DNA of 64,000 nt from Hyphomicrobiales bacterium (GTDB taxonomy: Bacteria > Pseudomonadota > Alphaproteobacteria > Rhizobiales > Aestuariivirgaceae): assembly GCA_046349315.1 (NCBI GenBank), contig JAXMCQ010000005.1, positions 161,701-225,700 of the forward strand, given 5' to 3'. The notes under the pieces were generated by a model. It searched no databases. It worked only from the letters and a program-made list of their open reading frames with translations, and was not told where the DNA came from. A program made the position numbers and the translations under genes. Below, piece by piece: positions 52,043 to 64,000 of the stretch (positions within the stretch are counted from its first letter, which is position 1; every line of letters begins with the position of its first letter).

Positions 52043-53169
52043 TGCCGATGCGCGACATCGGTGTCGGCATCATCGGCACAGGCTTCATGGGCAAGGCCCA
52101 CGCCTTTGCCTATCGCGCCGTATCGGGCATTCTCCCCGTCTCGCTCCGCCCTGTCTTGCGCGTGGTCGCCGACAATAATCGTGAAGCCGGGCTTGCGACG
52201 CAAAAGCAACTCGGCTTCGAGAAATTCACCGCCGACTGGACCGAACTTGTCCGCGACCCGGGCGTCGAGATCGTCTCGATCACCACGCCCAATGTCGTTC
52301 ACCGCGAAATGGCGCTCGCCGCGATCGCTGAAGGCAAGCATGTCCATTGCGAGAAGCCGATCGCGCCGAGTGCTGATGACGCGCGCGCCATGATGGAGGC
52401 GGCAGAGGCGAAAGGCGTCAAGACGCAGGTCGGGTATAATTACATCAAGAACCCGCTGCTGGTTCTTGCCCGCGACATGATCGCTTCGGGCGAGCTTGGT
52501 GAGATCACCGGCTTTCGCGGCATCCATGCCGAGGATTACATGGCAAGCCCGGATGTTCCCTATGGCTGGCGCGTCGATCCCTCGGGCGGTGGCGGCGCGG
52601 TCGCCGATCTCGGCAGCCACATTGTCGGCATGGCGCGCTTTCTCTTAGGACCGATCGCATCTGTGAATGCCGATCTCGAAACCATCGTGAAATCGCGCCC
52701 CATCGCGCCGGGCTCGAACGAACGCCGAGAGGTCAAGGTCGACGATATCGCGCGGCTCACCGTGCGTTTCGCGCGCGGCTGCGGCGGACAGATCGAGGCC
52801 AATTGGGTGGCGACCGGCCGCAATATGGATCTGGGCTTCCAGCTCTACGGCACCAAGGCCTCGCTCGCCTTCACCCAGGAGCGCTTCAACGAACTCCTCT
52901 ATTACAAGGCGGGAGGACCCAAGGGCCGCAAGGGTTATCAGAAGATCGAAGCGGGACCCGAGCACTATCCTTACGGTCTCTTCTGCGTCGCACCGGGCCA
53001 TCAACTTGGCTTCAACGATCTGAAGACGATCGAAGTCGCCGACTTCCTCGACACGATTTCAGGCGGTCAGCCAAAAGGCCCGGATTTCCGCGAGGCGTGG
53101 GAGATCCAGAAGGTGATCGATACCGCGATCCGTTCGTCGCGCGAGCGGCGCTGGCTCGATATCGCGTGA
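52042..53169 (+). CDS. Gfo/Idh/MocA family oxidoreductase
   Basis: 375 aa with VGIIGTGFMGKAHAFAY and CEKPIA. Its ATG overlaps the iolG stop by 1 nt (TGATG). Confidence 0.88.
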   Translation: MPMRDIGVGIIGTGFMGKAHAFAYRAVSGILPVSLRPVLRVVADNNREAGLATQKQLGFEKFTADWTELVRDPGVEIVSITTPNVVHREMALAAIAEGKHVHCEKPIAPSADDARAMMEAAEAKGVKTQVGYNYIKNPLLVLARDMIASGELGEITGFRGIHAEDYMASPDVPYGWRVDPSGGGGAVADLGSHIVGMARFLLGPIASVNADLETIVKSRPIAPGSNERREVKVDDIARLTVRFARGCGGQIEANWVATGRNMDLGFQLYGTKASLAFTQERFNELLYYKAGGPKGRKGYQKIEAGPEHYPYGLFCVAPGHQLGFNDLKTIEVADFLDTISGGQPKGPDFREAWEIQKVIDTAIRSSRERRWLDIA

Positions 53170-54401
53170 CGACCCGCGAAAACTGCCTGGCGCGCGACCG
53201 CGCCGATCCTCTGGCGGGGAAGCGCTCAGCATTCGTGCTTCCCGAAGGCGTTGTCTATCTCGATGGTAATTCGCTCGGCGCCTTGCCGCGCAATGTTGCC
53301 GCGCGCGTCGCCGACACGATCGACAGGCAATGGGGTGCAACCCTCATCAAATCCTGGAACGAGCATGGCTGGTTCGACCTGCCGCGAAAAATCGGCGATC
53401 GCATCGCGAGACTGATCGGCGCGCCACGGATGAGCGTCGTTGCCTGCGACACGATCTCGGTCAATCTCTATAAATTGCTTGGCGCGGCGATTGCGTTGCG
53501 GCCCGGTCGCCATGTCATTCTCTCCGACACCGGCAATTTTCCGACTGACCTCTATATGATGCAGGGCTTGATCCGCCTGCTCGACCGCGGTCTCGAACTG
53601 CGCCTTGTCGAGCCGGAGGATGTCGAAGCTGCGATCGCCGATGATGTCGCGGTCGTCTCGCTGACCGAAGTCGACTACCGCACCGGACGCCGGCATGACA
53701 TGAAGCGATTGACGGCGCGGGCGCACGCGGCCGGCGCGCTCATGATCTGGGATCTCGCGCATTCCGCCGGCGCCTTCCCGGTCGATCTCGAAGGCTGCAA
53801 CGCCGATTTTGCGGTGGGCTGCACTTACAAGTATCTGAATGGCGGGCCTGGCGCCCCGGCCTTTCTCTATGTACGGCCCGATCTCCAGGGTCGGATTGAA
53901 TCGCCGCTCTCCGGCTGGTGGGGCCATGAAGCGCCGTTCGCTTTCGACACGGATTATCGCCCGGCACCGGGCATTCTCCGCCAGCAATGCGGCACGCAGG
54001 CGATCCTTGCGATGGCGGCGCTCGATTCGGCGCTTGATGTCTGGGACGATGTCGACCTCGCTGAACTGCGCCGCAAATCCGAAGCGCTGTGCGAACTCTT
54101 CATCGCTGAAGTTGAGAGCCGCAACCGGAAGCACGGCGTAAAGCTCGCCGGCCCGCGGGACATGCGCGAGCGCGGTTCGCATGTCTCCTTTCACTGCCCC
54201 GAAGGCTATGCAGTCATGCAGGCACTCATCGCGCAAGGCGTGATCGGCGATTTCCGCGCGCCCGATATCGTCCGCTTCGGCATCACGCCGCTCTACACGC
54301 GCTTCGTCGATATCTGGGACGCGGCCGACATTCTCACGCGCATCCTCGATGAGCGATTGTGGGATGATCCGCGTTTCAAATCGCGCAAGGCGGTGACGTG
54401 A
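53166..54401 (+). CDS. kynU: Kynureninase
   Basis: ORF 52803..54401 trimmed to the GTG at 53166-53168, which overlaps the upstream stop (GTGA). By recollection it is similar end to end to Pseudomonas kynureninase (LPEGV.YLDGNSLGA, GNFPTDLY, WDLAHSAGA.PVDL, GCTYKYLNGGPG with the PLP lysine). Confidence 0.88.
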   Translation: MTTRENCLARDRADPLAGKRSAFVLPEGVVYLDGNSLGALPRNVAARVADTIDRQWGATLIKSWNEHGWFDLPRKIGDRIARLIGAPRMSVVACDTISVNLYKLLGAAIALRPGRHVILSDTGNFPTDLYMMQGLIRLLDRGLELRLVEPEDVEAAIADDVAVVSLTEVDYRTGRRHDMKRLTARAHAAGALMIWDLAHSAGAFPVDLEGCNADFAVGCTYKYLNGGPGAPAFLYVRPDLQGRIESPLSGWWGHEAPFAFDTDYRPAPGILRQQCGTQAILAMAALDSALDVWDDVDLAELRRKSEALCELFIAEVESRNRKHGVKLAGPRDMRERGSHVSFHCPEGYAVMQALIAQGVIGDFRAPDIVRFGITPLYTRFVDIWDAADILTRILDERLWDDPRFKSRKAVT

Positions 54402-55024
54402 GCCGCATCATTGATATTTCGCAACCGCTCGATCCCGGCATGGCGGGATTCCCGGGCGATACCCCGTACCAGGAAGCGCAGACCTTTCGCATCGGGCCGA
54501 ACTGTCCGGTCAATGTCGCGCAAATATCATTGTCGGTGCATTGCGGCACCCATGCCGATGCGCCCTTGCATTATGCCGCCGATGGCAAGCCGATCGGCGC
54601 ACTCGATCTCGAACCCTTCATCGGCCCTTGCCGGGTGATCGATGCACGTGGCATGGGCCCGCTTTGTGAACCGCAGCAGATCGAGGCGTATCTCAAGGAT
54701 GCACCATCGCGCATTCTCCTGCGCCTGACCGACGGATTCGATCCGCATGTCTGGCCGACAGGCTTTCGCGCGCTGTCCGCCGCAACTATCGAGTTGCTGA
54801 CCTCGCGCAGCGTGCGTCTCGTCGGCATCGATACACCCTCCGTCGATCCTGAAACCTCGAAAGACCTGCCGGCCCATAACGCGGCTTTGCGCACCGACAT
54901 GCGCATCCTCGAAAATCTTGTCCTAACGCATGTCGCTCAAGGCGACTATGAACTGATCGCGCTCCCCTTGCGCTTCTCGAACCTCGACGCCTCGCCGGTC
55001 CGCGCCGTGCTCCGCACAGTGTAA
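54398..55024 (+). CDS. kynB: Kynurenine formamidase (cyclase family)
   Basis: 208 aa. The GTG overlaps the kynU stop. It has the metal-binding motif HCGTHADAPLHY. Confidence 0.85.
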   Translation: MSRIIDISQPLDPGMAGFPGDTPYQEAQTFRIGPNCPVNVAQISLSVHCGTHADAPLHYAADGKPIGALDLEPFIGPCRVIDARGMGPLCEPQQIEAYLKDAPSRILLRLTDGFDPHVWPTGFRALSAATIELLTSRSVRLVGIDTPSVDPETSKDLPAHNAALRTDMRILENLVLTHVAQGDYELIALPLRFSNLDASPVRAVLRTV

Positions 55025-55603: not shown

Positions 55604-56038
55604 TCATATCCTCTCATTCTCGATGAGGTTCTTCAAAAGCACGACCTCGAATTCATGCGAGGCTGTGAGCCGCCGCCAGCGATCATCATCCATCGCCATC
55701 GCGCGCCACGCCATAAAGGTCAAGACAGAATGCCCAGCATCGAGCCCCAGATGCGCGCCCGGAACGACACGCACCTGGATGCGCGGCACCAGCGCTTCCC
55801 GGTTGCCGCCAAGCTTGTAGTCGATCGACAACCGCTCTCTGTCCGCATCGATGCGCACGAGAATCCGGTTGCCATCGAAAATGCTCGTTCCCGTGACGAG
55901 CCCGTCCGCCGCAATCTTCGTCTCCCATGTGCCGAATGACCAGCGATGAAGCTTCGCCGGATCGGCCATGATCGCGAAAACATGCTCCGCCGGCTGCCTA
56001 ACGACGATCGACGTGATATGCGACTGCCCGGCGCTCAT
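55604..56038 (-). CDS. SRPBCC (START/polyketide cyclase-like) family protein
   Basis: 144 aa. The N-terminal pattern ...I.....P.E.VF..M.DP..L..W is typical of SRPBCC proteins. Its ATG overlaps the upstream stop (ATGA at 56035-56038). The assignment is tentative. Confidence 0.6.
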   Translation of the reverse strand: MSAGQSHITSIVVRQPAEHVFAIMADPAKLHRWSFGTWETKIAADGLVTGTSIFDGNRILVRIDADRERLSIDYKLGGNREALVPRIQVRVVPGAHLGLDAGHSVLTFMAWRAMAMDDDRWRRLTASHEFEVVLLKNLIENERI

Positions 56039-56652
56039 GCCGCCGCCTCCGCCGCAACACTCGGCGGCTCCGTTGTGTTGACGACGAGAATGCGCACGGG
56101 CTTCTCGCCCTCGGCCAAATAGGCGTGCCCCATGCGTGAATCGAAATAGACGCTGTCGCCGGCCTCGAGCCGCAAAGGTTCGTAAAATTCGCTGGCAAGT
56201 ATCAAGACGCCGTCCATCACATAGACGAATTCTTCACCCGCATGCCGCGACAACCCGCCCGCTTCTTCGACAGAGCGCATCGACACGGTGTTGATTGCCG
56301 GATGCATCTTCTTGTTGGCAAGATCAGTACAGAGCACCAGCGCCTCGTAGCGTGCGGTATCGAGCGGCGCACCTTCGCCCTTCCGGCACACGCTACGGAT
56401 GCCATTGCCAATCGGCTTCTGATCCTCGCCGAAGAATCGCGTGATGTCGACATCGAGCGCTTGCGACAGCATGTAGAGATGATGTGCACTGACCAATGTC
56501 TGATCGTTTTCGACGCGCGAAAGGGTTGCTTCCGACAATCCCGCCAATGCCGCAAGTTCGGCGAGCGACTTGCCGCGCTCCTTGCGCAATGCCTTGATCC
56601 GCGGGCCGATCGGCAGCCCTATGCTGCGCGCCTCATCGCGGCTCATGCCCAT
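56035..56652 (-). CDS. XRE family transcriptional regulator with C-terminal cupin domain
   Basis: ORF trimmed to the ATG at 56652 (alternative start at 56646). It has HTH IKALRKERGKSLAELAALAGLSEATLSRVEND and a cupin-like HAGEEFVYVMDG...GDSVYFDSRMGH. Confidence 0.82.
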   Translation of the reverse strand: MGMSRDEARSIGLPIGPRIKALRKERGKSLAELAALAGLSEATLSRVENDQTLVSAHHLYMLSQALDVDITRFFGEDQKPIGNGIRSVCRKGEGAPLDTARYEALVLCTDLANKKMHPAINTVSMRSVEEAGGLSRHAGEEFVYVMDGVLILASEFYEPLRLEAGDSVYFDSRMGHAYLAEGEKPVRILVVNTTEPPSVAAEAAA

Positions 56653-58324
56653 ACTCGCTACGCGCCGCTGCCGGCGTAACCAAGCCCGCCGCGAGATCGG
56701 CCTCGACAAGCGAAGCCTCGCGCTTCTTCGCATCGCCGAATCCACCACCGCCGGGAAGCTCCACGACCAGGCTGTCGCCGGTTGGCACGATATGAATGCC
56801 CTTGTCGGCCAGCGCCTTGCCCGAGCCTAATCGCGCATGGCCTTTACGACCGGGCTTTCCGCCGTCGCGGCCTTGTGCCGGATTGTGAATGCGATCGAAG
56901 GTCGCCGCAGAGATCGTGAAGGGAACCGCCTCGCGATTGGCGATCTCGATGGTCTGGCTCAAACCGCCTCGCCATTCGCCGGCACCTCCCGAATCCGCCA
57001 GATATTCCTTGCGCTTGAACCACAAAGGGCACTGGCCCTCGGTGACCTCGACCGGGATCGTCCCGACGCCCGACGGGAACGCCGTGGTTGCGAGCCCGTC
57101 CTTGCCTGGCCTGCCGCCAATGCCGCCGAGCCCGATATTGATCACGCCGAAGGATTTCGCCTTCGCGGTTTCGGCCGCTGGCACGCGGCCATGGGCGCTG
57201 TTGAGCGAGAGGATCCAGATCGATCCCGCACTTTCCGCCTGCACCTTGCCGGGAAGCGCCTGCGCGAGGCAGCCGAACACCGCGTCCGCTAGCATCTGAC
57301 CGATCACATGCCGCGCCGTGACCGGCGACGGCCTTGTCGGATCGACACAGGTTCCCGCCTCGGTGACGAGATCGAAGCAGTTGAGCGAACCGATATTGTT
57401 CGGCACATGCGGCGCGATCACCGCCTTGAGCCCGAACACCGAATAGGCATGCGTATAGGTGCGCGGGCTGTTGATGCCGTAGATCGAGGCGGGTGATGAG
57501 CCCGAGAAATCGATGGTGATCTTGCCGCGTCTGATGGTGAGCTTGGCCTTGAGCAGGATCGCGCTCTCATAGCCGTCGAGCGGCATTTCGTAAGTCCACT
57601 CGCCTTCCGGCAATTGCCTGATCGCCTCGCGCGCCGCCTTTTCCGATTGCGTCAGGATATGTTTGGCGAGCGGCTCGATGGTCGTGAGTTTGAACTCCTT
57701 CGTCATGTCGAGAAGGCGCCGCGCGCCGGTGTCATTGGCGCTGATGAGGGAGAGAAGATCGCCGCGCACCTCGACCGGATTGCGCGAGTTCGCAAGGATG
57801 ATCGACATCAATTCTTCATTGATCTTGCCTTCCTTCCGCAGCATGAGATGTGGAATGAGCGTACCTTCCTCGAATGAGGAATTGGCCTTGGCCGACATGC
57901 CGACGCCGCCGACATCGATGACATGGCAGGTGGAGGCGAAGATCGCGACCGGCCTCTTGCCGATGAAGACGGGCGTCATCATCACATAGTCGAAGAGATG
58001 CCCGGTGCCGAGCCAGGGATCATTGGTGATGTAGACATCGCCCGGCTTCATCGATGCGACCGGGTATTTGTGGAAGAAGTGGCTGACTGCTGTCGCCATG
58101 GTATTCACGTGGCCGGGCGTGCCGGTCATCGCCTGCGCGATCATCCGGCCCTTGGTGTCATAGACGCCGGCCGAGAGATCGCCCGCTTCGCGGGTGATCG
58201 TACCGAAGGCGGTGCGGAGCAGCGATTGCGCCTGCTCTTCGACGACAGCGATGAGACGGTTCCACATCACCTGCGTGCGGATGGCGGCGAGGGCATTAGT
58301 GGGTGTGTTACTACGGTTTTTCAT
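56633..58324 (-). CDS. hyuB: Hydantoinase B / oxoprolinase family protein
   Basis: 563 aa. The N-terminus IRTQVMWNRLIAVVEEQAQSLLRTAFGTITREAGDLSAGVYD is typical of HyuB. Confidence 0.88.
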   Translation of the reverse strand: MKNRSNTPTNALAAIRTQVMWNRLIAVVEEQAQSLLRTAFGTITREAGDLSAGVYDTKGRMIAQAMTGTPGHVNTMATAVSHFFHKYPVASMKPGDVYITNDPWLGTGHLFDYVMMTPVFIGKRPVAIFASTCHVIDVGGVGMSAKANSSFEEGTLIPHLMLRKEGKINEELMSIILANSRNPVEVRGDLLSLISANDTGARRLLDMTKEFKLTTIEPLAKHILTQSEKAAREAIRQLPEGEWTYEMPLDGYESAILLKAKLTIRRGKITIDFSGSSPASIYGINSPRTYTHAYSVFGLKAVIAPHVPNNIGSLNCFDLVTEAGTCVDPTRPSPVTARHVIGQMLADAVFGCLAQALPGKVQAESAGSIWILSLNSAHGRVPAAETAKAKSFGVINIGLGGIGGRPGKDGLATTAFPSGVGTIPVEVTEGQCPLWFKRKEYLADSGGAGEWRGGLSQTIEIANREAVPFTISAATFDRIHNPAQGRDGGKPGRKGHARLGSGKALADKGIHIVPTGDSLVVELPGGGGFGDAKKREASLVEADLAAGLVTPAAARSEYGHEPR

Positions 58325-58329
58325 TTTCC

Positions 58330-58412
58330 GTCATGCCAGCGAAAGCTGGCATCCCCTGAGAATGTGCCGTTACTGAAATGATTCAGGGGACCCCAGCTTT
58401 CGCTGGGGTGAC
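58330..58412. repeat. 83-bp palindromic MITE-like element, family A, copy 3
   Basis: Its termini are identical or near-identical to copies 1 and 2, and its centre has diverged. It fills most of the 103-nt hyuA-hyuB spacer. Confidence 0.85.
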
Positions 58413-58427
58413 GATGAAGAAAATTCG

Positions 58428-60503
58428 TCATCCCTTCTTCTCCAGCACGATGTAACCGAGACTGTCGATGCGCGCGCTGAAATTGGCGCCGACGATCGTC
58501 GACGTCTCGTCTTCGGCAATGATTGCGGGTCCCTTGATGCGGGCGCCCGGCGCCATGTCAAAGCGCCAATAGACCGGCGTATCGACCATCTTGCCCAATG
58601 CCGCGTCATAGACCTTGCGCTTGGCTTTAGGCTTCGGTGCGGCCGCAGCCTTCACCGGCTTTGCCCGCTTCGCCGGCTCGGCGCGCGAAGACGCCGTCAC
58701 CGACCAGGTGATCGCCTCCGCTTCCATGCCTTCGATGGTGAGGCCGTAGATCTGCCGATAGAGCCGCTCGAATTCGGTGCGCAGCTTGGCGCCGTCGGCC
58801 TGGGTCAAATGCTTGACCGGAACCTTGATGCGGATTTCATGGCCCTGCCCCACATAGCGACAATCGGCAATGCGCTGGATGGTGACTGCCTGACCCTTGA
58901 GTGCCGGCTTGACCACTTCCATCGCATCTTTTGTCATCCGATCGAGCAAGTCATTCACCCGTTTCGCATCGAAACTGTCGAGGCTCACGGCCGCGCTGCG
59001 TGTCACCTCATAGGCGATCGGCGCGCGCAGAAATCCGATTGCCGAACCAACGCCCGCGCCCTTCGGCACGAGAATGGTATCGACTCCGACCTTTTCGGCA
59101 AGCCGGCAGGCATGCAATGGCGCGCCGCCTCCGAAAGCGATCATCGTGCAGGCGGAAATATCCTTGCCGCGCTCGATCGCATGGACGCGCGCCGCATTCG
59201 CCATGTTCTCTTCGACGATCTCGGCGACACCCGCCGCCGGCCAGAAATCTTCGAGCCCCAAGGGCATGCCGATATTGCGCTTGAGCGCCTGCGCCGCCCC
59301 GGTCTCGTCGAGCTTGATCTTGCCGCCCGCGAAATAGGCGGGATCGATCTTGCCGAGTGCGAGATTGGCGTCGGTCACCGCGGGCTCGGTACCGCCACGC
59401 GCATAGCACACAGGTCCCGGCGTCGAACCGGCACTGTCTGGTCCGACGGTGATGCGGCCAAGCTTGTCGACCCGCGCTATCGAGCCGCCGCCGGCGCCGA
59501 TCTCGACCATTTCAATGACCGGAATGCGCACCGGCAGGCCCGAACCCTTCATGTCGCGATAGGCGCGGGCGATCTCGAATTTGCGCGCCCGTTCCGGTTC
59601 GCCGTCGGTGAGGAGGCAGATTTTTGCCGTCGTGCCACCCATGTCGAAGGACAATACTTCGTCGAGCCCACATTCCTGCGCGATGCGCCCTGCCAGGATG
59701 GCGCCGCCAGCTGGCCCGGATTCAACAAGGCGGATCGGAAACCGTGCCGCGGTTTCGAGCGTCGTGAGCCCGCCGCCCGACATCATGAGGAAGAGCGGCG
59801 CTTTCAACCCCATGGCCCGCAAGGCCTCGCCAAGCCGGTTGAGATAGCCCGACATCAATGGGCGCACATAGGCATTGGCGACCGTCGTCGAGAACCGTTC
59901 ATATTCGCGAATTTCCGGTGCCACTTCGCTCGACAGGCAGAGCGTCACGTCCTTCGGCAATTTCCCGCGTAAGAGATCGCGAATCCGCTTCTCATGCGCA
60001 TCATGCGCATAGGCATGGAGCAGGCCGATGGCCACCGCGCCGACCCTCTCGGCGATGATCTTCTCGGCAATGTCAGCGACATTGCTTTCATCGAGCGGGA
60101 TCAGCACATCGCCGGTGACTGCAAGCCTCTCGCGCACGGTGTAGCGCCGCGTGCGCGGTACAAGTGGCGACGGCCGATCGATCATCAAGTCGTAATGATC
60201 GAAGCGCTTTTCATAACCCTGCTCTATGATATCGCGGAAACCTTCGGTCGTGATGAAGGCGGTCTTGGCACCCTTGCGTTCGATCAGCGCATTGGTGGCA
60301 AGCGTCGTTCCATGGATGAAAACGCTGACGTCCTTCGCCGCGATTTTCGCTTCATCCAGAACCAATTTGATGCCTTCGAGCACGCCAAGTTCAGGCGCCT
60401 CGGTGGTCGTAAGCACCTTGCCACTGAAGCGCTTTTTGCCGGCTTCGAGCACGATATCGGTGAAAGTGCCGCCGATATCGGCGGCGAGTTTGATGTCGCT
60501 CAT
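58428..60503 (-). CDS. hyuA: Hydantoinase A / oxoprolinase family protein
   Basis: ORF trimmed to the ATG at 60501-60503. The N-terminus is KLAADIGGTFTDIV (ASKHA-fold ATPase). The product is 691 aa. Confidence 0.88.
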   Translation of the reverse strand: MSDIKLAADIGGTFTDIVLEAGKKRFSGKVLTTTEAPELGVLEGIKLVLDEAKIAAKDVSVFIHGTTLATNALIERKGAKTAFITTEGFRDIIEQGYEKRFDHYDLMIDRPSPLVPRTRRYTVRERLAVTGDVLIPLDESNVADIAEKIIAERVGAVAIGLLHAYAHDAHEKRIRDLLRGKLPKDVTLCLSSEVAPEIREYERFSTTVANAYVRPLMSGYLNRLGEALRAMGLKAPLFLMMSGGGLTTLETAARFPIRLVESGPAGGAILAGRIAQECGLDEVLSFDMGGTTAKICLLTDGEPERARKFEIARAYRDMKGSGLPVRIPVIEMVEIGAGGGSIARVDKLGRITVGPDSAGSTPGPVCYARGGTEPAVTDANLALGKIDPAYFAGGKIKLDETGAAQALKRNIGMPLGLEDFWPAAGVAEIVEENMANAARVHAIERGKDISACTMIAFGGGAPLHACRLAEKVGVDTILVPKGAGVGSAIGFLRAPIAYEVTRSAAVSLDSFDAKRVNDLLDRMTKDAMEVVKPALKGQAVTIQRIADCRYVGQGHEIRIKVPVKHLTQADGAKLRTEFERLYRQIYGLTIEGMEAEAITWSVTASSRAEPAKRAKPVKAAAAPKPKAKRKVYDAALGKMVDTPVYWRFDMAPGARIKGPAIIAEDETSTIVGANFSARIDSLGYIVLEKKG

Positions 60504-60522
60504 GGGGTGGATTATCGCCGCG

Positions 60523-60559
60523 TCTTTCAATTTTGCAAGGAAGTTTCGCTATTGAAAGA
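60523..60559. promoter_or_regulatory. Inverted repeat TCTTTCAAT-N19-ATTGAAAGA in the hyuA / kynureninase-like divergent promoter region
   Basis: Perfect 9-bp arms at 60523-60531 and 60551-60559 within the 83-nt intergenic region. Confidence 0.4.
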
Positions 60560-60586
60560 TCGCCCAATTTGGGAAATGATCGGGGC

Positions 60587-61813
60587 ATGACCCGCGATCA
60601 CGCCATCGCCCTCGACAGTGCAGACAAGCTCATGTTTCTGCGCGATTTTTTCGAGTTGCCGGAGGGCCTGATCCATCTCGATGCCAATTCCGTCGGCCCC
60701 ATGCCGAAAGCCACGCGCGAAGCGGCCAAGGGCCTTCTCGACGACTGGGTGACGCTCCGTCGCCGCGGCTGGGCCGAGCGCCAATGGCTTGATATGCCTT
60801 CGCTTTTGGGCGACGCGATCGCCCCCATGATCGGTGCCGGCAAGGGCGAAGTCGTGATGTGCGACTCGACCACGCTCAACCAGTTCAAGGCCGTCGCGCA
60901 CGCGCTATGCATCAATGCAAACCGCAATGTGATCGTCACCCAGAGCGGCAATTTTCCCACCGATTTGCACGTTCTAGAGGGTCTAAAACACGTCTTTTCG
61001 CGCGATTTGCGCGTCATTTTCTGCGCCTCAGAAGACGAAGCTGTCGCCGCCCTGAACGGCGATGGCGCGGTCGCCGCCTTGAGCCATGTCGACTACCGCT
61101 CCGGCGAGCGCTGGAACATGAAGCGCGTCACCAAATCCGCGCATGACAAGGGCGTGCTCACCGTCTGGGACGTCTCGCATTCCGCCGGTGCCGTGCCCGT
61201 CGATGTGCGTGCCGCCGACGCCGATTTCGTCATCGGCTGCGGCTATAAATATCTCTGTTCTGGCCCAGGCGGGCCGGCCTTCATCTATGCAAAGCCCGGG
61301 CTTGCCGATCGCGCTCATCCGGCGATTGCCGGCTGGATGGGTCATGCCGATGTCTTCGCCTTCGCAGGCGAGTATGAACCGCATCCCGGCGTCAAGCGCT
61401 TCCTGACCGGAACGCCGCCGGTCGGTGCCAATGAACTGGCGAAACCCCTCCTCGACATCTGGCCCAAGGTCGATCCCCAGGCATTGTGGGCCAAGCACAA
61501 GTCACTCACCGACACTCTAATCGCGCTTCTCAAATCCGAATGCGGGCCGCTCGGCGTGACGGTGACGTCGCCGGAAGATCACGCGCGCCGCGGCGGCAAT
61601 GTCAGCTTTTCATCGCCTGGCGCCGGCTCGGTCGTCGAAGCCTTGCTCGACCAAGGCGTCATCCCGTCCTTCCGCAAGCCCGACGCAATCCGCTTCGGCG
61701 TCTCCCCACTCGTCATCCGCCATGTCGATATTTACGACGCGGTCCAGCACCTGAAGCATGTGCTTGAAGCCGAAATCTGGAAGCAGCCGAAATACGCCAA
61801 GGTTGCGGTATGA
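60587..61813 (+). CDS. Kynureninase family PLP-dependent hydrolase, second paralog
   Basis: ORF trimmed to the ATG at 60587. It aligns by eye to the 53166-54401 product (GNFPTDLH, WDVSHSAGAVPVD, GCGYKYLCSGPGGPAF, FRKPDAIRFG). Confidence 0.82.
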   Translation: MTRDHAIALDSADKLMFLRDFFELPEGLIHLDANSVGPMPKATREAAKGLLDDWVTLRRRGWAERQWLDMPSLLGDAIAPMIGAGKGEVVMCDSTTLNQFKAVAHALCINANRNVIVTQSGNFPTDLHVLEGLKHVFSRDLRVIFCASEDEAVAALNGDGAVAALSHVDYRSGERWNMKRVTKSAHDKGVLTVWDVSHSAGAVPVDVRAADADFVIGCGYKYLCSGPGGPAFIYAKPGLADRAHPAIAGWMGHADVFAFAGEYEPHPGVKRFLTGTPPVGANELAKPLLDIWPKVDPQALWAKHKSLTDTLIALLKSECGPLGVTVTSPEDHARRGGNVSFSSPGAGSVVEALLDQGVIPSFRKPDAIRFGVSPLVIRHVDIYDAVQHLKHVLEAEIWKQPKYAKVAV

Positions 61814-62898
61814 CACGCCATCCGATTCTCGGACCCAACAGATTCAAGCTCGGTATCTTCTCCGCCAATGCCGATGGCGGCCTCACCCTCACCACCGTTC
61901 CCGAACGCTGGCAGGCGCGCTGGGATGACATTGCCGAGGTCGCCCGCATGGCCGATCGCGCCGGCATCGAATTCTTCCTGCCCATCGCGCGCTGGAAAGG
62001 CTTCGGCGGTGCGACCAATTCGCGCGAACATTCTTTCGAGACGTTCACCTTTGCCGCTGCGATTGCCGCGATCACCGAAAAGATCGGCGTCTTCTCGACC
62101 ATTCACGTGCCGATGATCCATCCCGTCTATGCGGCGAAAGCCCTGGCGAGCGTCGACAACATCAGCCACGGCCGCGCCGGTCTCAATATCGTTGCCGGCT
62201 GGAATCCGGACGAATTCGCGATGTTCGGCATCGAGGCCGAAGCCGAGCGCTATGCCCAGGCGCTCGAATGGTACGAAATCATCTGCCGGATCTATTACGA
62301 GCCGAAGCCTTTCGATTTCGACGGGCGCTTTTACAAACTGCGCAATGTCTCGGGCAAACCGCGGCCCGCGCAATTGCCGCGCCCCGTAACACTCAATGCC
62401 GCCTTCGGTCCGCCGGGCCGCGATTTCGCGGCGAAGTCGTCGGACTTCCTGTTCACGACCTTTTCCGACATCGAGGCGGGCAAGGCGCACATCGCCGATA
62501 TTCGCGAGCGTGGCGCCCGTGAAGGCCGCGAACTCGGCGTCTTCACCACGTGTCATGTCGTCTGCCGGCCGAGCCAGGACGAGGCCGAGGCCTATTACGA
62601 GCGCTACGCCGTGACGATGGCGGATAAGGGCGCCGTCGACTATCACATGTCGCAGAAGCAGAAATTTGCAGGCTCGCATGATGAGGCGACTTTCCGTCTC
62701 CATGCCAAGCGCTTCGCCGGCGGCGCCGGCACCTATCCCCTGATCGGCACGCCGGAAAAGATCGCCACCGAAATGGCGCGCATGAGCGAGGCCGGCTTCG
62801 CCGGTACGACCGTGAGCTTCGTCAACTTCAAGGACGAATTGCCGTATTTTATCGAGAGCGTATTGCCGCTTATGAGGGAAACAAGTCTGCGGGCGTAG
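61810..62898 (+). CDS. LLM class flavin-dependent monooxygenase (RutA/DszA-like group)
   Basis: 362 aa. Its ATG overlaps the upstream stop (ATGA at 61810-61813). The motifs are RWKGFGG.T, SHGRAGLNIVAGWNPDEF.MFG. Confidence 0.82.
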   Translation: MTRHPILGPNRFKLGIFSANADGGLTLTTVPERWQARWDDIAEVARMADRAGIEFFLPIARWKGFGGATNSREHSFETFTFAAAIAAITEKIGVFSTIHVPMIHPVYAAKALASVDNISHGRAGLNIVAGWNPDEFAMFGIEAEAERYAQALEWYEIICRIYYEPKPFDFDGRFYKLRNVSGKPRPAQLPRPVTLNAAFGPPGRDFAAKSSDFLFTTFSDIEAGKAHIADIRERGAREGRELGVFTTCHVVCRPSQDEAEAYYERYAVTMADKGAVDYHMSQKQKFAGSHDEATFRLHAKRFAGGAGTYPLIGTPEKIATEMARMSEAGFAGTTVSFVNFKDELPYFIESVLPLMRETSLRA

Positions 62899-62899
62899 A

Positions 62900-63190
62900 C
62901 TATAACTCTTCCCATGTGTTGCGACGCGCGCCGTGAATGATCCGGAGGATAACAACCTCGCCCGCAAAAATCTTGTAGTAAAGCACATAGGGTTAGCGAA
63001 GCAGCGGGAGACGCCTGACACCCGGTCTGTCTGCAATCTCCCGCGCAGACATCGGAAATTGCGCGATTCGTTTGACTACATTGTCCAGTCGCTGAACAAA
63101 TTGACGAGCAGCAGCCGGATTGTTGGTTTCGATATCTACGAGAATTGCTTCAAGTTCGACCAGCGCTAGTCTCGAAAACCGGACTCTCAT
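62900..63190 (-). pseudogene. ParE/RelE-family toxin interrupted by an in-frame TAA
   Basis: The 65-aa ORF ends ...RRLPLLR at a TAA (62993-62995). The same frame continues PYVLYYKIFAGEVVILRIIHGARRNTWEEL to a TAG at 62900-62902. The expected YPY motif implies a TAC/TAT to TAA change. Confidence 0.75.
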
Positions 63191-63417
63191 CCGCGTCGAT
63201 ATTTGGCCAGCAGCTTCTCAACTTCCTGCTCCGTCGCGATCTCGCCCCGCTCCACGGCCGCTAGCCCTTCATCGATTGCATGCAGTTCCTCTGTCGTCGC
63301 GCGATAGGGACCAGCCCGCCGTTCCTCGATTTCAAGCGCGATCTGAGCAAGTTCCTCTTGATCCTCCCGCGGCCACCGGGCAATGCGGATCAGCATCTGT
63401 TTGATTTCTGCATTCAT
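63187..63417 (-). CDS. Putative type II antitoxin cognate to the ParE-like toxin
   Basis: 76 aa, acidic. Its stop overlaps the toxin ATG (ATGA at 63187-63190). I did not confidently recognise the family. Confidence 0.6.
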   Translation of the reverse strand: MNAEIKQMLIRIARWPREDQEELAQIALEIEERRAGPYRATTEELHAIDEGLAAVERGEIATEQEVEKLLAKYRRG

Positions 63418-63515
63418 ATCGAAAGATTACCACGATAACTTTCTTACGGAAAGTATTGCATGATGTTCATTGCAGGCTACGCTCGTCAAAATCACAAGCC
63501 GCTGGAGCAACGCAC

Positions 63516-64000
63516 ATGGAATGGCTGAACGAGCCGAAACTATGGAAGGCCTCTGGCGATAGGATCACGCTTACGACTGAGGACAGGACCGATTTCTGGC
63601 AGAACACCTTCTACGGCTTTCAGCACGATAACGGTCATTTCTACTTCGACAGGGTCACCGGCGATTTCACGGCCGAAGTGTCATTCACCGCTGCCTATGA
63701 GCAGCTCTACGACCAGGCCGGACTCATGCTGCGCTTATCCGAACATCACTGGATCAAGGCCGGCGTCGAATTCGTCGACGGGAAATGCAGGCTGGCGACG
63801 GTTCTGACGCGCGACTTGTCCGACTGGGCCTTAGGCCCGGAAGTTGATCGGCGCGCCAAGCTGCGCTTGCGCATGATACGCCTGAATGACGCCGTCTGCG
63901 TACAATGGGCACCTGAAGATCCTGCGACGCCCTACGAGACCTTGCGGCTTGGTCCGATATCGCACGGTAGTGCGATGGTGGGGCCCATGTCCTGCTCGCC
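63516..64000 (+). CDS. DUF1349 domain protein (concanavalin A-like fold), 5' partial; runs off the window
   Basis: My own translation from the ATG at 63516 (GGAG upstream) gives MEWLNEPKLWKASGDRITLTTEDRTDFWQNTFYGFQHDNGHFYF...QAGLMLRLSEHHWIKAGVEFVDG. The frame is open to the window end. It is absent from the ORF track because it is incomplete. Confidence 0.7.
   Translation, partial: MEWLNEPKLWKASGDRITLTTEDRTDFWQNTFYGFQHDNGHFYFDRVTGDFTAEVSFTAAYEQLYDQAGLMLRLSEHHWIKAGVEFVDGKCRLATVLTRDLSDWALGPEVDRRAKLRLRMIRLNDAVCVQWAPEDPATPYETLRLGPISHGSAMVGPMSCS

Follow-up and report, generated by a model that had tools for sequence, protein, structure and literature searches.

We analyzed a 64,000-nucleotide stretch of contig JAXMCQ010000005.1 from a Hyphomicrobiales bacterium (the window), in which two divergent sets of genes lie at positions 55604-62898. 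One set encodes HyuA and HyuB of the hydantoinase/lactamase superfamily, a regulator with an XRE-type helix-turn-helix (HTH) and a cupin domain, and a small protein of the SRPBCC superfamily. The other encodes a second kynureninase-type pyridoxal phosphate (PLP) enzyme, here called Kyn2, and an LLM-class monooxygenase. All six genes were confirmed by open reading frame (ORF) listing and by profile searches against Pfam and NCBIfam. The family assignments and the divergent architecture given in a preliminary description of this DNA hold. As set out below, the window carries the left two-thirds of a conserved catabolic module. Its enzyme families are known, whereas their combination and two dedicated subfamilies are undescribed.

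The genes are closely packed (Table 1). The ATG of the SRPBCC gene overlaps the stop of the regulator gene in an ATGA at 56035-56038, and the Kyn2 and LLM genes share four nucleotides (61810-61813) and are translationally coupled, both as first described. For the regulator, a start at 56748 was considered and rejected; the most likely start is the ATG at 56646 (or 56652), which overlaps the hyuB stop. Because the regulator gene overlaps hyuB at its start and the SRPBCC gene at its end, hyuA, hyuB, the regulator gene and the SRPBCC gene form one operon. The length reported for the divergent spacer, 83 nt, was correct. So was the distance of about 6 kb between the second kynureninase gene and the canonical pair, since kynU-kynB lies 6.2 kb upstream. 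Between the SRPBCC gene and the end of this pair are 580 nt, which contain a DUF559 gene.

Table 1. Features of the divergent cluster and its surroundings; positions are those of the window.
Feature	Position	Strand	Domains and remarks
SRPBCC protein (Bet v 1-fold), 144 aa	55604-56038	-	Closes the hyuA operon; belongs to the conserved core
XRE-type HTH + cupin regulator, about 203 aa	56035-56646 (start ATG 56646 or 56652)	-	HTH_3, Cupin_2
HyuB, predicted metal-containing hydrolytic subunit, ATP-dependent lactamase type	56633-58324	-	Hydantoinase_B
hyuA-hyuB spacer, 103 nt	58325-58427		
HyuA, ATP-binding (ASKHA-fold) subunit	58428-60503	-	Hydant_A_N, Hydantoinase_A, Hydant_A_C
Divergent promoter/candidate operator region, 83 nt	60504-60586		Inverted repeat 60523-60559
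Kyn2, kynureninase-subfamily PLP enzyme, 408 aa	60587-61813	+	KYNU_C, Aminotran_5
LLM-class flavin-dependent monooxygenase (SfnG/RutA subgroup)	61810-62898	+	Bac_luciferase; lineage-specific accessory
Start of the ~7.6-kb insertion splitting the cluster	62899-64000		Relatives have LLM, aminotransferase, binding protein and ABC genes contiguous
Canonical kynU-kynB pair	53166-55024	+	kynU about 53166-54401, kynB 54398-55024; neighbour, possibly functionally linked

One genome per species was scanned with an alignment of Kyn2 relatives as the query, which gave 80 loci with 10-kb flanks (numbered with the prefix L). These were examined by tblastn, ORF clustering and Pfam. The Kyn2 clade comprised 43 sequences (support 99) and took in every locus whose kynureninase is nearer to Kyn2 than to the canonical enzyme. 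HyuA and HyuB genes stood alongside in 37 of these 43 loci. Among the six exceptions, only the two from Pseudovibrio (L038 and L043) lack HyuAB over complete 10-kb flanks; the contigs of L002 and L032 are short, and those of L023 and L027 are cut near the gene. Carriers of the Kyn2 clade belong to the Alpha-, Beta- and Gammaproteobacteria and the Rokubacteria, with one metagenome-assembled genome (MAG) labelled Deltaproteobacteria/Myxococcota. Kyn2-type genes are nevertheless rare and were found in 3 of 200 sampled genomes of the same order.

The SRPBCC gene was present in most Kyn2/HyuAB loci and the XRE-cupin gene in about half, with orthologs of the regulator at 43-69% identity in many loci. 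Gene order varied by lineage. The arrangement is divergent in Alphaproteobacteria; in the Rokubacteria locus L021 the genes for a solute-binding protein (SBP), SRPBCC, Kyn2, HyuA and HyuB follow each other on one strand with overlaps of 1-8 nt. In the HyuB tree, the kynureninase-linked HyuB formed a single clade (support 100), whose branching resembles that of the Kyn2 tree. This clade leaves out ten HyuB from genomes of the same order that lack Kyn2. In those ten outside pairs, HyuA is 51-58% identical to the copy in the window, whereas HyuB is only 45-50% identical.

The conserved core is thus Kyn2, HyuA/HyuB and the small SRPBCC protein, often accompanied by the XRE-cupin regulator and usually beside an uptake system, which is a LivJ-type ABC importer here and a TRAP system elsewhere. 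The preliminary description had recognized hyuAB and the kynureninase paralog, and by the locus count and the clade trees the two divergent halves are indeed co-conserved as regards HyuAB and Kyn2. It had overlooked that the SRPBCC protein is part of the core. Because dozens of unrelated genomes share the gene set, and because the repeat described below sits in a conserved operator-like block, the arrangement reflects more than chance. Literature searches pairing kynureninase with hydantoinase or oxoprolinase, or addressing kynureninase-like gene clusters, gave no relevant study, and no orthologous cluster with an established substrate was found under these pairings of family names.

Bacteria that carry the module come from wastewater, soil and the sea. 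DNA nearly identical to window positions 58428-62898 was found in wastewater and activated-sludge metagenomes from four studies, with word shares of at least 0.2; small unverified shares were seen in rhizosphere and biofilm runs. The basal members L049 and L068 carry genes for an isochorismatase-family hydrolase, a protein of the arylmalonate-decarboxylase/maleate-isomerase family and two aldo-keto reductases around HyuAB-Kyn2, and L049, though not L068, also has an AMP-ligase gene. This set is reminiscent of pyridine-ring (maleamate) pathways. At L044 (4474-13620) and L046, a canonical-type kynureninase gene lies 5 kb from a distant HyuAB (42% and 32% identity), with amidase genes between. 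These two loci may be an independent instance of kynureninase-HyuAB proximity.

Kyn2 matched KYNU_C with 86.5 bits and also Aminotran_5 in Pfam. Its score against the TIGR01814 kynureninase equivalog, 236 bits, falls just under the cut-off of 246.4, and it matched the kynureninase structure 1QZ9 in the PDB with 342 bits. It is 42% identical to the canonical KynU of the window. Among 15 diverse members of the Kyn2 clade, S35, W62, F123, D195, K221, W250, T276 and R369 are invariant, and Y220 is kept in at least 90% of the sequences. By alignment with 1QZ9, K221 is the PLP lysine and Y220 the tyrosine that precedes it, D195 the aspartate at the PLP nitrogen, W250 the phosphate-binding tryptophan, R369 the arginine for the substrate carboxylate and F123 the stacking phenylalanine. 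Kyn2 thus has the fold and the catalytic apparatus of a kynureninase. The PLP lysine context GYKYL was present as previously noted, and the paralog has lost none of its catalytic residues.

W62 and T276 occupy the positions of human H102 and N333. A Trp/Thr pair at these positions is strictly conserved in kynurenine-preferring bacterial kynureninases (PMC11329768). Since Kyn2 keeps this pair, an aryl-ketone-type or 2-aminobenzoyl-like substrate is argued for. Seven positions separate the Kyn2 clade from the canonical enzymes: R59, H304, G337, G347, E351, S361 and V406. The changes include Ile to Arg59, three residues before the specificity Trp, and Asp to Ser361. These two would suit a more anionic substrate, as expected after the opening of a lactam. 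Kyn2 does not fit the canonical kynA-kynB-kynU pathway: it forms a separate clade, and the genome has no match to the tryptophan 2,3-dioxygenase family PF03301.

HyuA contains Hydant_A_N (163 bits), Hydantoinase_A (278 bits) and Hydant_A_C (53 bits), and HyuB contains Hydantoinase_B (457 bits), which places both in the HyuA/HyuB superfamily. The ASKHA ATP motifs (DxGGTxxD, DxGGT and GxxPGP) and an Asp-His-Asp-His metal site have been defined for caprolactamase (PMC8453981). In HyuA, DIGGTFTD (residues 9-16), DMGGT (287-291) and GSTPGP (359-364) represent the P1, P2 and adenosine motifs. In HyuB, D49, H109, D112 and H134 are invariant in 36 sequences and spaced like the metal tetrad of CapB. 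Both the ATP motifs and the metal site of the superfamily are therefore present.

Neither subunit approached an NCBIfam equivalog cut-off. The CapA model gave 484 bits with HyuA and the CapB model 169 bits with HyuB, against a cut-off of 1000 each; the acetophenone/acetone carboxylase equivalogs gave 277 and 107 bits, against cut-offs of 1500. In the PDB, HyuA scored 386 bits with the N-methylhydantoinase 7HK5 and 342 bits with 6YRA_A, compared with 230-270 bits for the carboxylases. The corresponding values for HyuB were 149 bits (7HK5) and 115 bits (6YRA_B), compared with 88 and 42 bits. On these scores, the nearest solved relatives of HyuAB are lactam hydrolases and not carboxylases. The preliminary description had listed several characterised members of the family; our placement is nearest to the N-methylhydantoinase and the caprolactamase 6YRA, with HyuB in its own kynureninase-linked clade. 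A housekeeping 5-oxoprolinase was rejected, since the clade is rare and tied to kynureninase genes.

HyuAB could also be an ATP-dependent ketone carboxylase of the acetone or acetophenone type, acting on an aryl ketone or aldehyde around the Kyn2 step. It belongs to the same superfamily and its metal tetrad is common to the carboxylases. Carboxylases have small extra subunits, which the small SRPBCC protein recalls. However, the SRPBCC protein is unrelated to the carboxylase small subunits, and neither the ORF list nor the profile search showed any Apc- or Acx-type extra subunit in the cluster. Kynureninase products are acids and not ketones. Both subunits score higher with lactam hydrolases, and the NCBIfam ranking agrees. 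We consider a carboxylase highly improbable.

The SRPBCC protein matched the Pfam model Polyketide_cyc2 with 21.1 bits, which is under the cut-off of 27.4. Its AlphaFold2 (AF2) model had a predicted local distance difference test (pLDDT) score of 92 and displayed a Bet v 1-type helix-grip fold. Foldseek gave a probability of 1.0 to 2QPV and to the PR-10, PYL and ARO/CYC folds. Membership in the SRPBCC (Bet v 1-like) superfamily is thus established by the structure model and Foldseek, while the sequence model stays below its cut-off. W33, R86, R112, W121, H128 and E131 are invariant, and H7 is present in at least 90% of the sequences.

The spacer between hyuA and the Kyn2 gene contains the perfect 9-bp inverted repeat that had been described. 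It has the form TCTTTCAAT-N19-ATTGAAAGA, with arms that are 100% complementary and a central TTTGCAAG box. Across the loci that bear the XRE-cupin gene, the hyuA-Kyn2 spacers contain repeated TTGCAA, TTTCAA or TTGAAA boxes. In the closest relatives, good conservation within the spacer is limited to a block of about 40 nt, TCTTGCAA-A-TTTGCAAG...ATTGCAAGA. In the window the left box reads TTTCAA and the right one TTGAAA, which amounts to a symmetric G to T and C to A compensatory change. Such a double change preserves the inverted repeat, as expected for the site of a dimeric DNA-binding protein. On both strands, hexamers resembling -35 promoter elements fall on the boxes; with four sites against 2.4 expected, this is weak evidence. 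Where the XRE gene is missing, the spacer motifs are different and so is the regulator (GntR, LacI or LysR). The regulator itself has an N-terminal HTH_3 (51 bits) and a C-terminal Cupin_2 domain (49 bits), and its score with the PuuR equivalog, 42 bits, is far below the cut-off of 211. From these spacer comparisons, the palindrome is a plausible candidate operator.

The monooxygenase matched Bac_luciferase in Pfam with 187 bits and is a member of the LLM class. Its scores with the SfnG model (171 bits, cut-off 383) and the RutA model (143 bits, cut-off 498) fall below both cut-offs, and it matched PDB 8T0U with 139 bits. It had been called RutA/DszA-like. The likeness to RutA stands; that to DszA does not, because the nearest relatives in NCBIfam and the PDB are SfnG and RutA. 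The preliminary description had also coupled this enzyme with the kynureninase as a unit. We rejected it as a core partner of Kyn2, since the LLM gene is confined to clusters whose Kyn2 shares at least 65% identity with the copy in the window, those of the closest relatives. LLM orthologs of at least 80% identity occur solely inside this cluster.

Elsewhere the place of the LLM is taken by other proteins. In the close relatives L004 and L009, a 375-aa bicupin replaces the LLM and an aminotransferase. In gammaproteobacterial and Rhodospirillales MAGs, Kyn2 is followed by a fusion of CDGSH-type (2Fe-2S) and bicupin domains. The fusion is about 355 aa long (L029:11240-12313, L037:11303-12370, L042:11257-12327 and others) and has two CDGSH iron-sulfur motifs and a His-x-His...Glu...His cupin; no NCBIfam model matched it. 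Bicupin and CDGSH-bicupin have no detectable sequence homology to each other.

Many LLM homologs with 56-74% identity occur in a different conserved cluster, found in the metagenome loci L107-L153. This cluster contains a GntR regulator, the LLM, a flavin reductase, an HpcH/HpaI aldolase, a V4R protein and an FAD-linked oxidase, together with a PF04199 cyclase (KynB/isatin-hydrolase family), an AMP-ligase, a class I/II aminotransferase and a TRAP or SBP_bac_5 transporter. A canonical-like kynureninase is also encoded at L130 and L131, and L122 has a bicupin like that of L004 and L009 just upstream of the LLM. The aminotransferase and aldolase of this cluster could be the keto-acid counterpart of kynureninase-type cleavage. 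A 403-aa neighbour of the LLM homologs was compared with the 375-aa bicupin and rejected as its relative.

The cluster does not end at 62898, as had been described, but resumes about 7.6 kb further on; the interrupting insertion had been overlooked. In relatives, the LLM gene is followed directly by genes for a HisC-like aminotransferase, a LivJ-type binding protein, two ATPases, two permeases and an SDR. In this genome the same genes are found only some 7.6 kb further downstream, past the end of the window, at L089:8215-14985 (G000:C5:232214-238984). The insertion covers window positions 62899-64000 and L089:600-8200 (G000:C5:224599-232199). It contains genes for DUF1349, a 753-aa DUF3604 protein, an alpha/beta hydrolase, a class IV aminotransferase and BacA/SbmA, and a 229-aa ORF without assignment. 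On the metagenome contig L103 (Kyn2 93% and LLM 95% identical), DUF1349 stands right after the LLM gene, with the aminotransferase gene about 4.7 kb on. The nearest solved relatives of the LivJ-type protein are Leu/Ile/Val-binding proteins. TRAP systems stand in for the ABC importer in other lineages, and the nearest solved TRAP binding proteins suggested no ligand. Uptake by LivJ-type or TRAP systems suits a carboxylate or amino-acid substrate.

The genomic context offers possible links to tryptophan metabolism. The canonical kynU-kynB pair adjoins the cluster also in L001 and L004 and is nearby in L009 and L011. In a sister genus of the same family (L090 = G164:C49 and L091 = G081:C12), a 79%-identical HyuAB still lies beside canonical kynU-kynB; in L090 the two are convergent and about 165 nt apart. 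L090 and L091 also have a LacI-type regulator divergent from HyuAB, with an aldehyde dehydrogenase and a Gfo/Idh/MocA gene nearby. No match to tryptophan 2,3-dioxygenase (TDO) was found in our genome, which marker genes score as 100% complete. A search of the genome for indoleamine 2,3-dioxygenase (PF01231) also gave no match, which is uninformative because the control genomes gave none either. No intradiol dioxygenase (PF00775) was found in the same genome, though kynU and kynB are present. The genome has five Rieske oxygenase alpha subunits.

We propose a general scheme in which the lactam of an aromatic amino acid is opened at the expense of ATP and cleaved between the β and γ carbons to alanine and an aryl acid. 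This scheme has about an even chance of being right. The preliminary description had guessed at a cyclic amide or an N-heterocyclic or aryl-amino compound. This generic guess we narrow to an aromatic lactam that probably derives from tryptophan or kynurenine. The substrate would be an imported aromatic amino acid with a cyclic amide, most plausibly of an oxidised tryptophan or kynurenine type such as oxindolyl- or dioxindolyl-alanine. HyuA would phosphorylate the lactim with ATP and the metal site of HyuB would hydrolyse it, so that the ring opens to a new carboxylate and an aryl amine. Kyn2, then or beforehand, would cleave between Cβ and Cγ in the manner of a kynureninase (retro-Claisen or retro-aldol) and release L-alanine and a 2-aminophenyl acid; with a γ-hydroxy ring-opened product, cleavage would be the retro-aldol variant that kynureninases carry out on dihydrokynurenine. 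The SRPBCC protein may bind or hand over the aromatic intermediate, and the XRE-cupin protein may repress both promoters until a pathway compound occupies its cupin domain. The LLM and the HisC-like aminotransferase would be lineage add-ons that act on the substrate beforehand, for instance by hydroxylating it, or on the product afterwards. That the substrate is specifically of the oxindolylalanine type seems unlikely on present evidence.

A bolder version of this scheme makes the module an undescribed ATP-dependent branch of tryptophan-metabolite breakdown that bypasses TDO. HyuAB would open a stable aromatic lactam (oxindolyl- or dioxindolyl-alanine, or kynurenic acid), Kyn2 would yield alanine and an anthranilate-type acid, and the SRPBCC protein would be a new obligatory helper of HyuAB. 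We offer this version tentatively and regard it as rather doubtful.

Several points weigh against the lactam-opening scheme. Arg59 and Ser361 of Kyn2, placed by alignment, are only putative active-site residues. The LLM has no flavin reductase in the cluster or its continuation. Which oxygenase-like accessory is present (LLM, bicupin or CDGSH-bicupin) depends on the lineage, so the peripheral chemistry, and perhaps the substrate, may vary. Finally, each half can stand alone: the sister genus keeps its ~79%-identical HyuAB without Kyn2, SRPBCC, XRE or LLM and with the LacI-type regulator instead, and Pseudovibrio has XRE, bicupin, Kyn2 and ABC genes with no HyuAB within 10 kb.

This last point speaks for two independent units that travel together, with Kyn2 a spare isozyme for kynurenine or hydroxykynurenine and HyuAB with SRPBCC acting on an unrelated lactam (5-oxoproline or an aliphatic one). 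The narrow gap between the Kyn2 score and the kynureninase equivalog cut-off would fit as well. However, the genes stand together in 37 of 43 loci, a linkage that spans phyla, has outlasted several rearrangements and includes translationally coupled co-directional operons, and the linked HyuB form one exclusive clade that branches much like Kyn2. One shared candidate operator serves the divergent promoters, and the sister-genus HyuAB still abuts a kynureninase gene. Independent units are therefore, in our estimate, quite unlikely.

Another route would salvage kynurenate (or another 4-quinolone-2-carboxylate) with HyuAB, the SRPBCC protein, the HisC-like aminotransferase and Kyn2. HyuAB and ATP would open the vinylogous lactam to 4-(2-aminophenyl)-2,4-dioxobutanoate, while the SRPBCC protein stops re-cyclisation. 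The aminotransferase would then form L-kynurenine, which Kyn2 would split into anthranilate and alanine. This route fits the full kynurenine-type Trp/Thr motif of Kyn2, transporters that suit a carboxylate, and a cluster that adjoins kynU-kynB in a genome without TDO. An aminotransferase gene follows the LLM in this lineage and Kyn2 in L031, L034 and L041, and the HyuAB family phosphorylates enol or lactim oxygens. In its favour too, one literature search on kynurenate degradation genes found none, and we know of no genes assigned to bacterial catabolism of kynurenate. On the other hand, minimal operons such as L021 have no aminotransferase, the binding protein looks amino-acid-type, and the opening of an aromatic 4-quinolone is unprecedented for the HyuAB family. 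Moreover, the diketo acid re-cyclises spontaneously. We hold kynurenate salvage to be improbable.

The ring might also be non-aromatic. Here the substrate would be a lactam of a 2-amino-4-oxo-dicarboxylic acid, of the 4-oxo-pyroglutamate or 4,6-dioxopipecolate/dihydroxypicolinate type. HyuAB would open the N-acyl lactam and free the α-amine, and Kyn2 would release alanine and a dicarboxylate. The late steps of the 'quinoline pathway', the classical route for kynurenate in Pseudomonas, would be an example; they have no genes assigned, and the route ends with alanine. Alanine was reportedly found as an end product of kynurenate catabolism by Horibata et al. in 1961. For the minimal SBP-SRPBCC-Kyn2-HyuA-HyuB operon this is the most parsimonious account, as no further enzyme is needed. 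The retained carboxylate suits TRAP uptake, and the extra Arg59 and lost Asp of Kyn2 fit a dicarboxylate. Against it, all 15 diverse Kyn2 sequences have the stacking Trp and the Thr, which speaks for an aryl group, and no ring-hydroxylating or ring-cleaving set is consistently present in the loci. We know of no abundant natural source of such lactams. A non-aromatic substrate thus has, in our view, a low probability.

So far, a single function has been assumed for the kynureninase family. That a conserved sister subfamily comes with partner enzymes of its own implies that there is a second physiological substrate. Since it adjoins kynU-kynB in a genome without tryptophan dioxygenase, the module may explain the use of oxidised tryptophan products or of kynurenate, compounds for whose bacterial catabolism we know of no assigned genes; if the substrate were kynurenate, these would be the first genes for its bacterial breakdown. 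Few biocatalysts are known to hydrolyse chemically stable 5- to 7-membered lactams; HyuAB-type enzymes belong to these few, and each new specificity is of interest for the biodegradation of nylon monomers and heterocycles. The module comprises few genes, and several of its carriers have been cultured, which opens the question to direct testing. Among the cultured carriers, Taklimakanibacter albus YIM B02566 has the LLM type, Hoeflea sp. TYP-13 and Maritalea sp. S77 have the bicupin type, and Pseudovibrio ascidiaceicola DSM 16392 naturally lacks HyuAB.

Compared with known systems, HyuAB is most like the caprolactamase CapAB of Pseudomonas jessenii (6YRA) and the fused N-methylhydantoinase (7HK5/9H03), its best PDB and NCBIfam matches. 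With CapAB it has in common the two-subunit architecture, all three ATP motifs and the Asp-His-Asp-His site. It differs from both in lying far under the equivalog cut-offs, in its separate kynureninase-tied clade and in its SRPBCC partner. The caprolactam route continues with an ω-transaminase and the creatinine route with a carbamoylase, whereas a PLP-dependent C-C hydrolase, Kyn2, stands here instead.

Kyn2 has the same fold as KynU of Pseudomonas fluorescens (1QZ9), which belongs to the kynA-kynB-kynU anthranilate pathway. It keeps the PLP Lys-Tyr motif, the Asp, the carboxylate-binding Arg, the stacking Phe and the Trp/Thr pair. Unlike KynU, it belongs to a distinct clade with seven specific substitutions and has only 42% identity to the KynU of its own genome. 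Unlike the genes of that pathway, it was never found with kynA and is embedded with HyuAB and SRPBCC.

The LLM of the window belongs to the same LLM subgroup as two FMNH2-dependent enzymes, RutA of the Rut pathway and the dimethylsulfone monooxygenase SfnG. RutA cleaves a cyclic amide oxidatively. Unlike these two, the LLM is well under the equivalog cut-offs and has no rutB-G or sfn partners and no flavin reductase in the cluster or its continuation.

The skatole-induced skt cluster of Rhodococcus ruber R1 combines a flavin monooxygenase, the caprolactamase-like pair SktIJ and an SDR for an indole-derived substrate (bioRxiv 10.1101/2024.12.29.630347). Its implied logic, a precedent for the proposed scheme, leads from indole to oxindole and on to ATP-dependent lactam opening, with the functions assigned from induction and similarity. 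In contrast to the cluster in the window, skt has no kynureninase, SRPBCC or XRE-cupin gene, and its monooxygenase comes from a different family.

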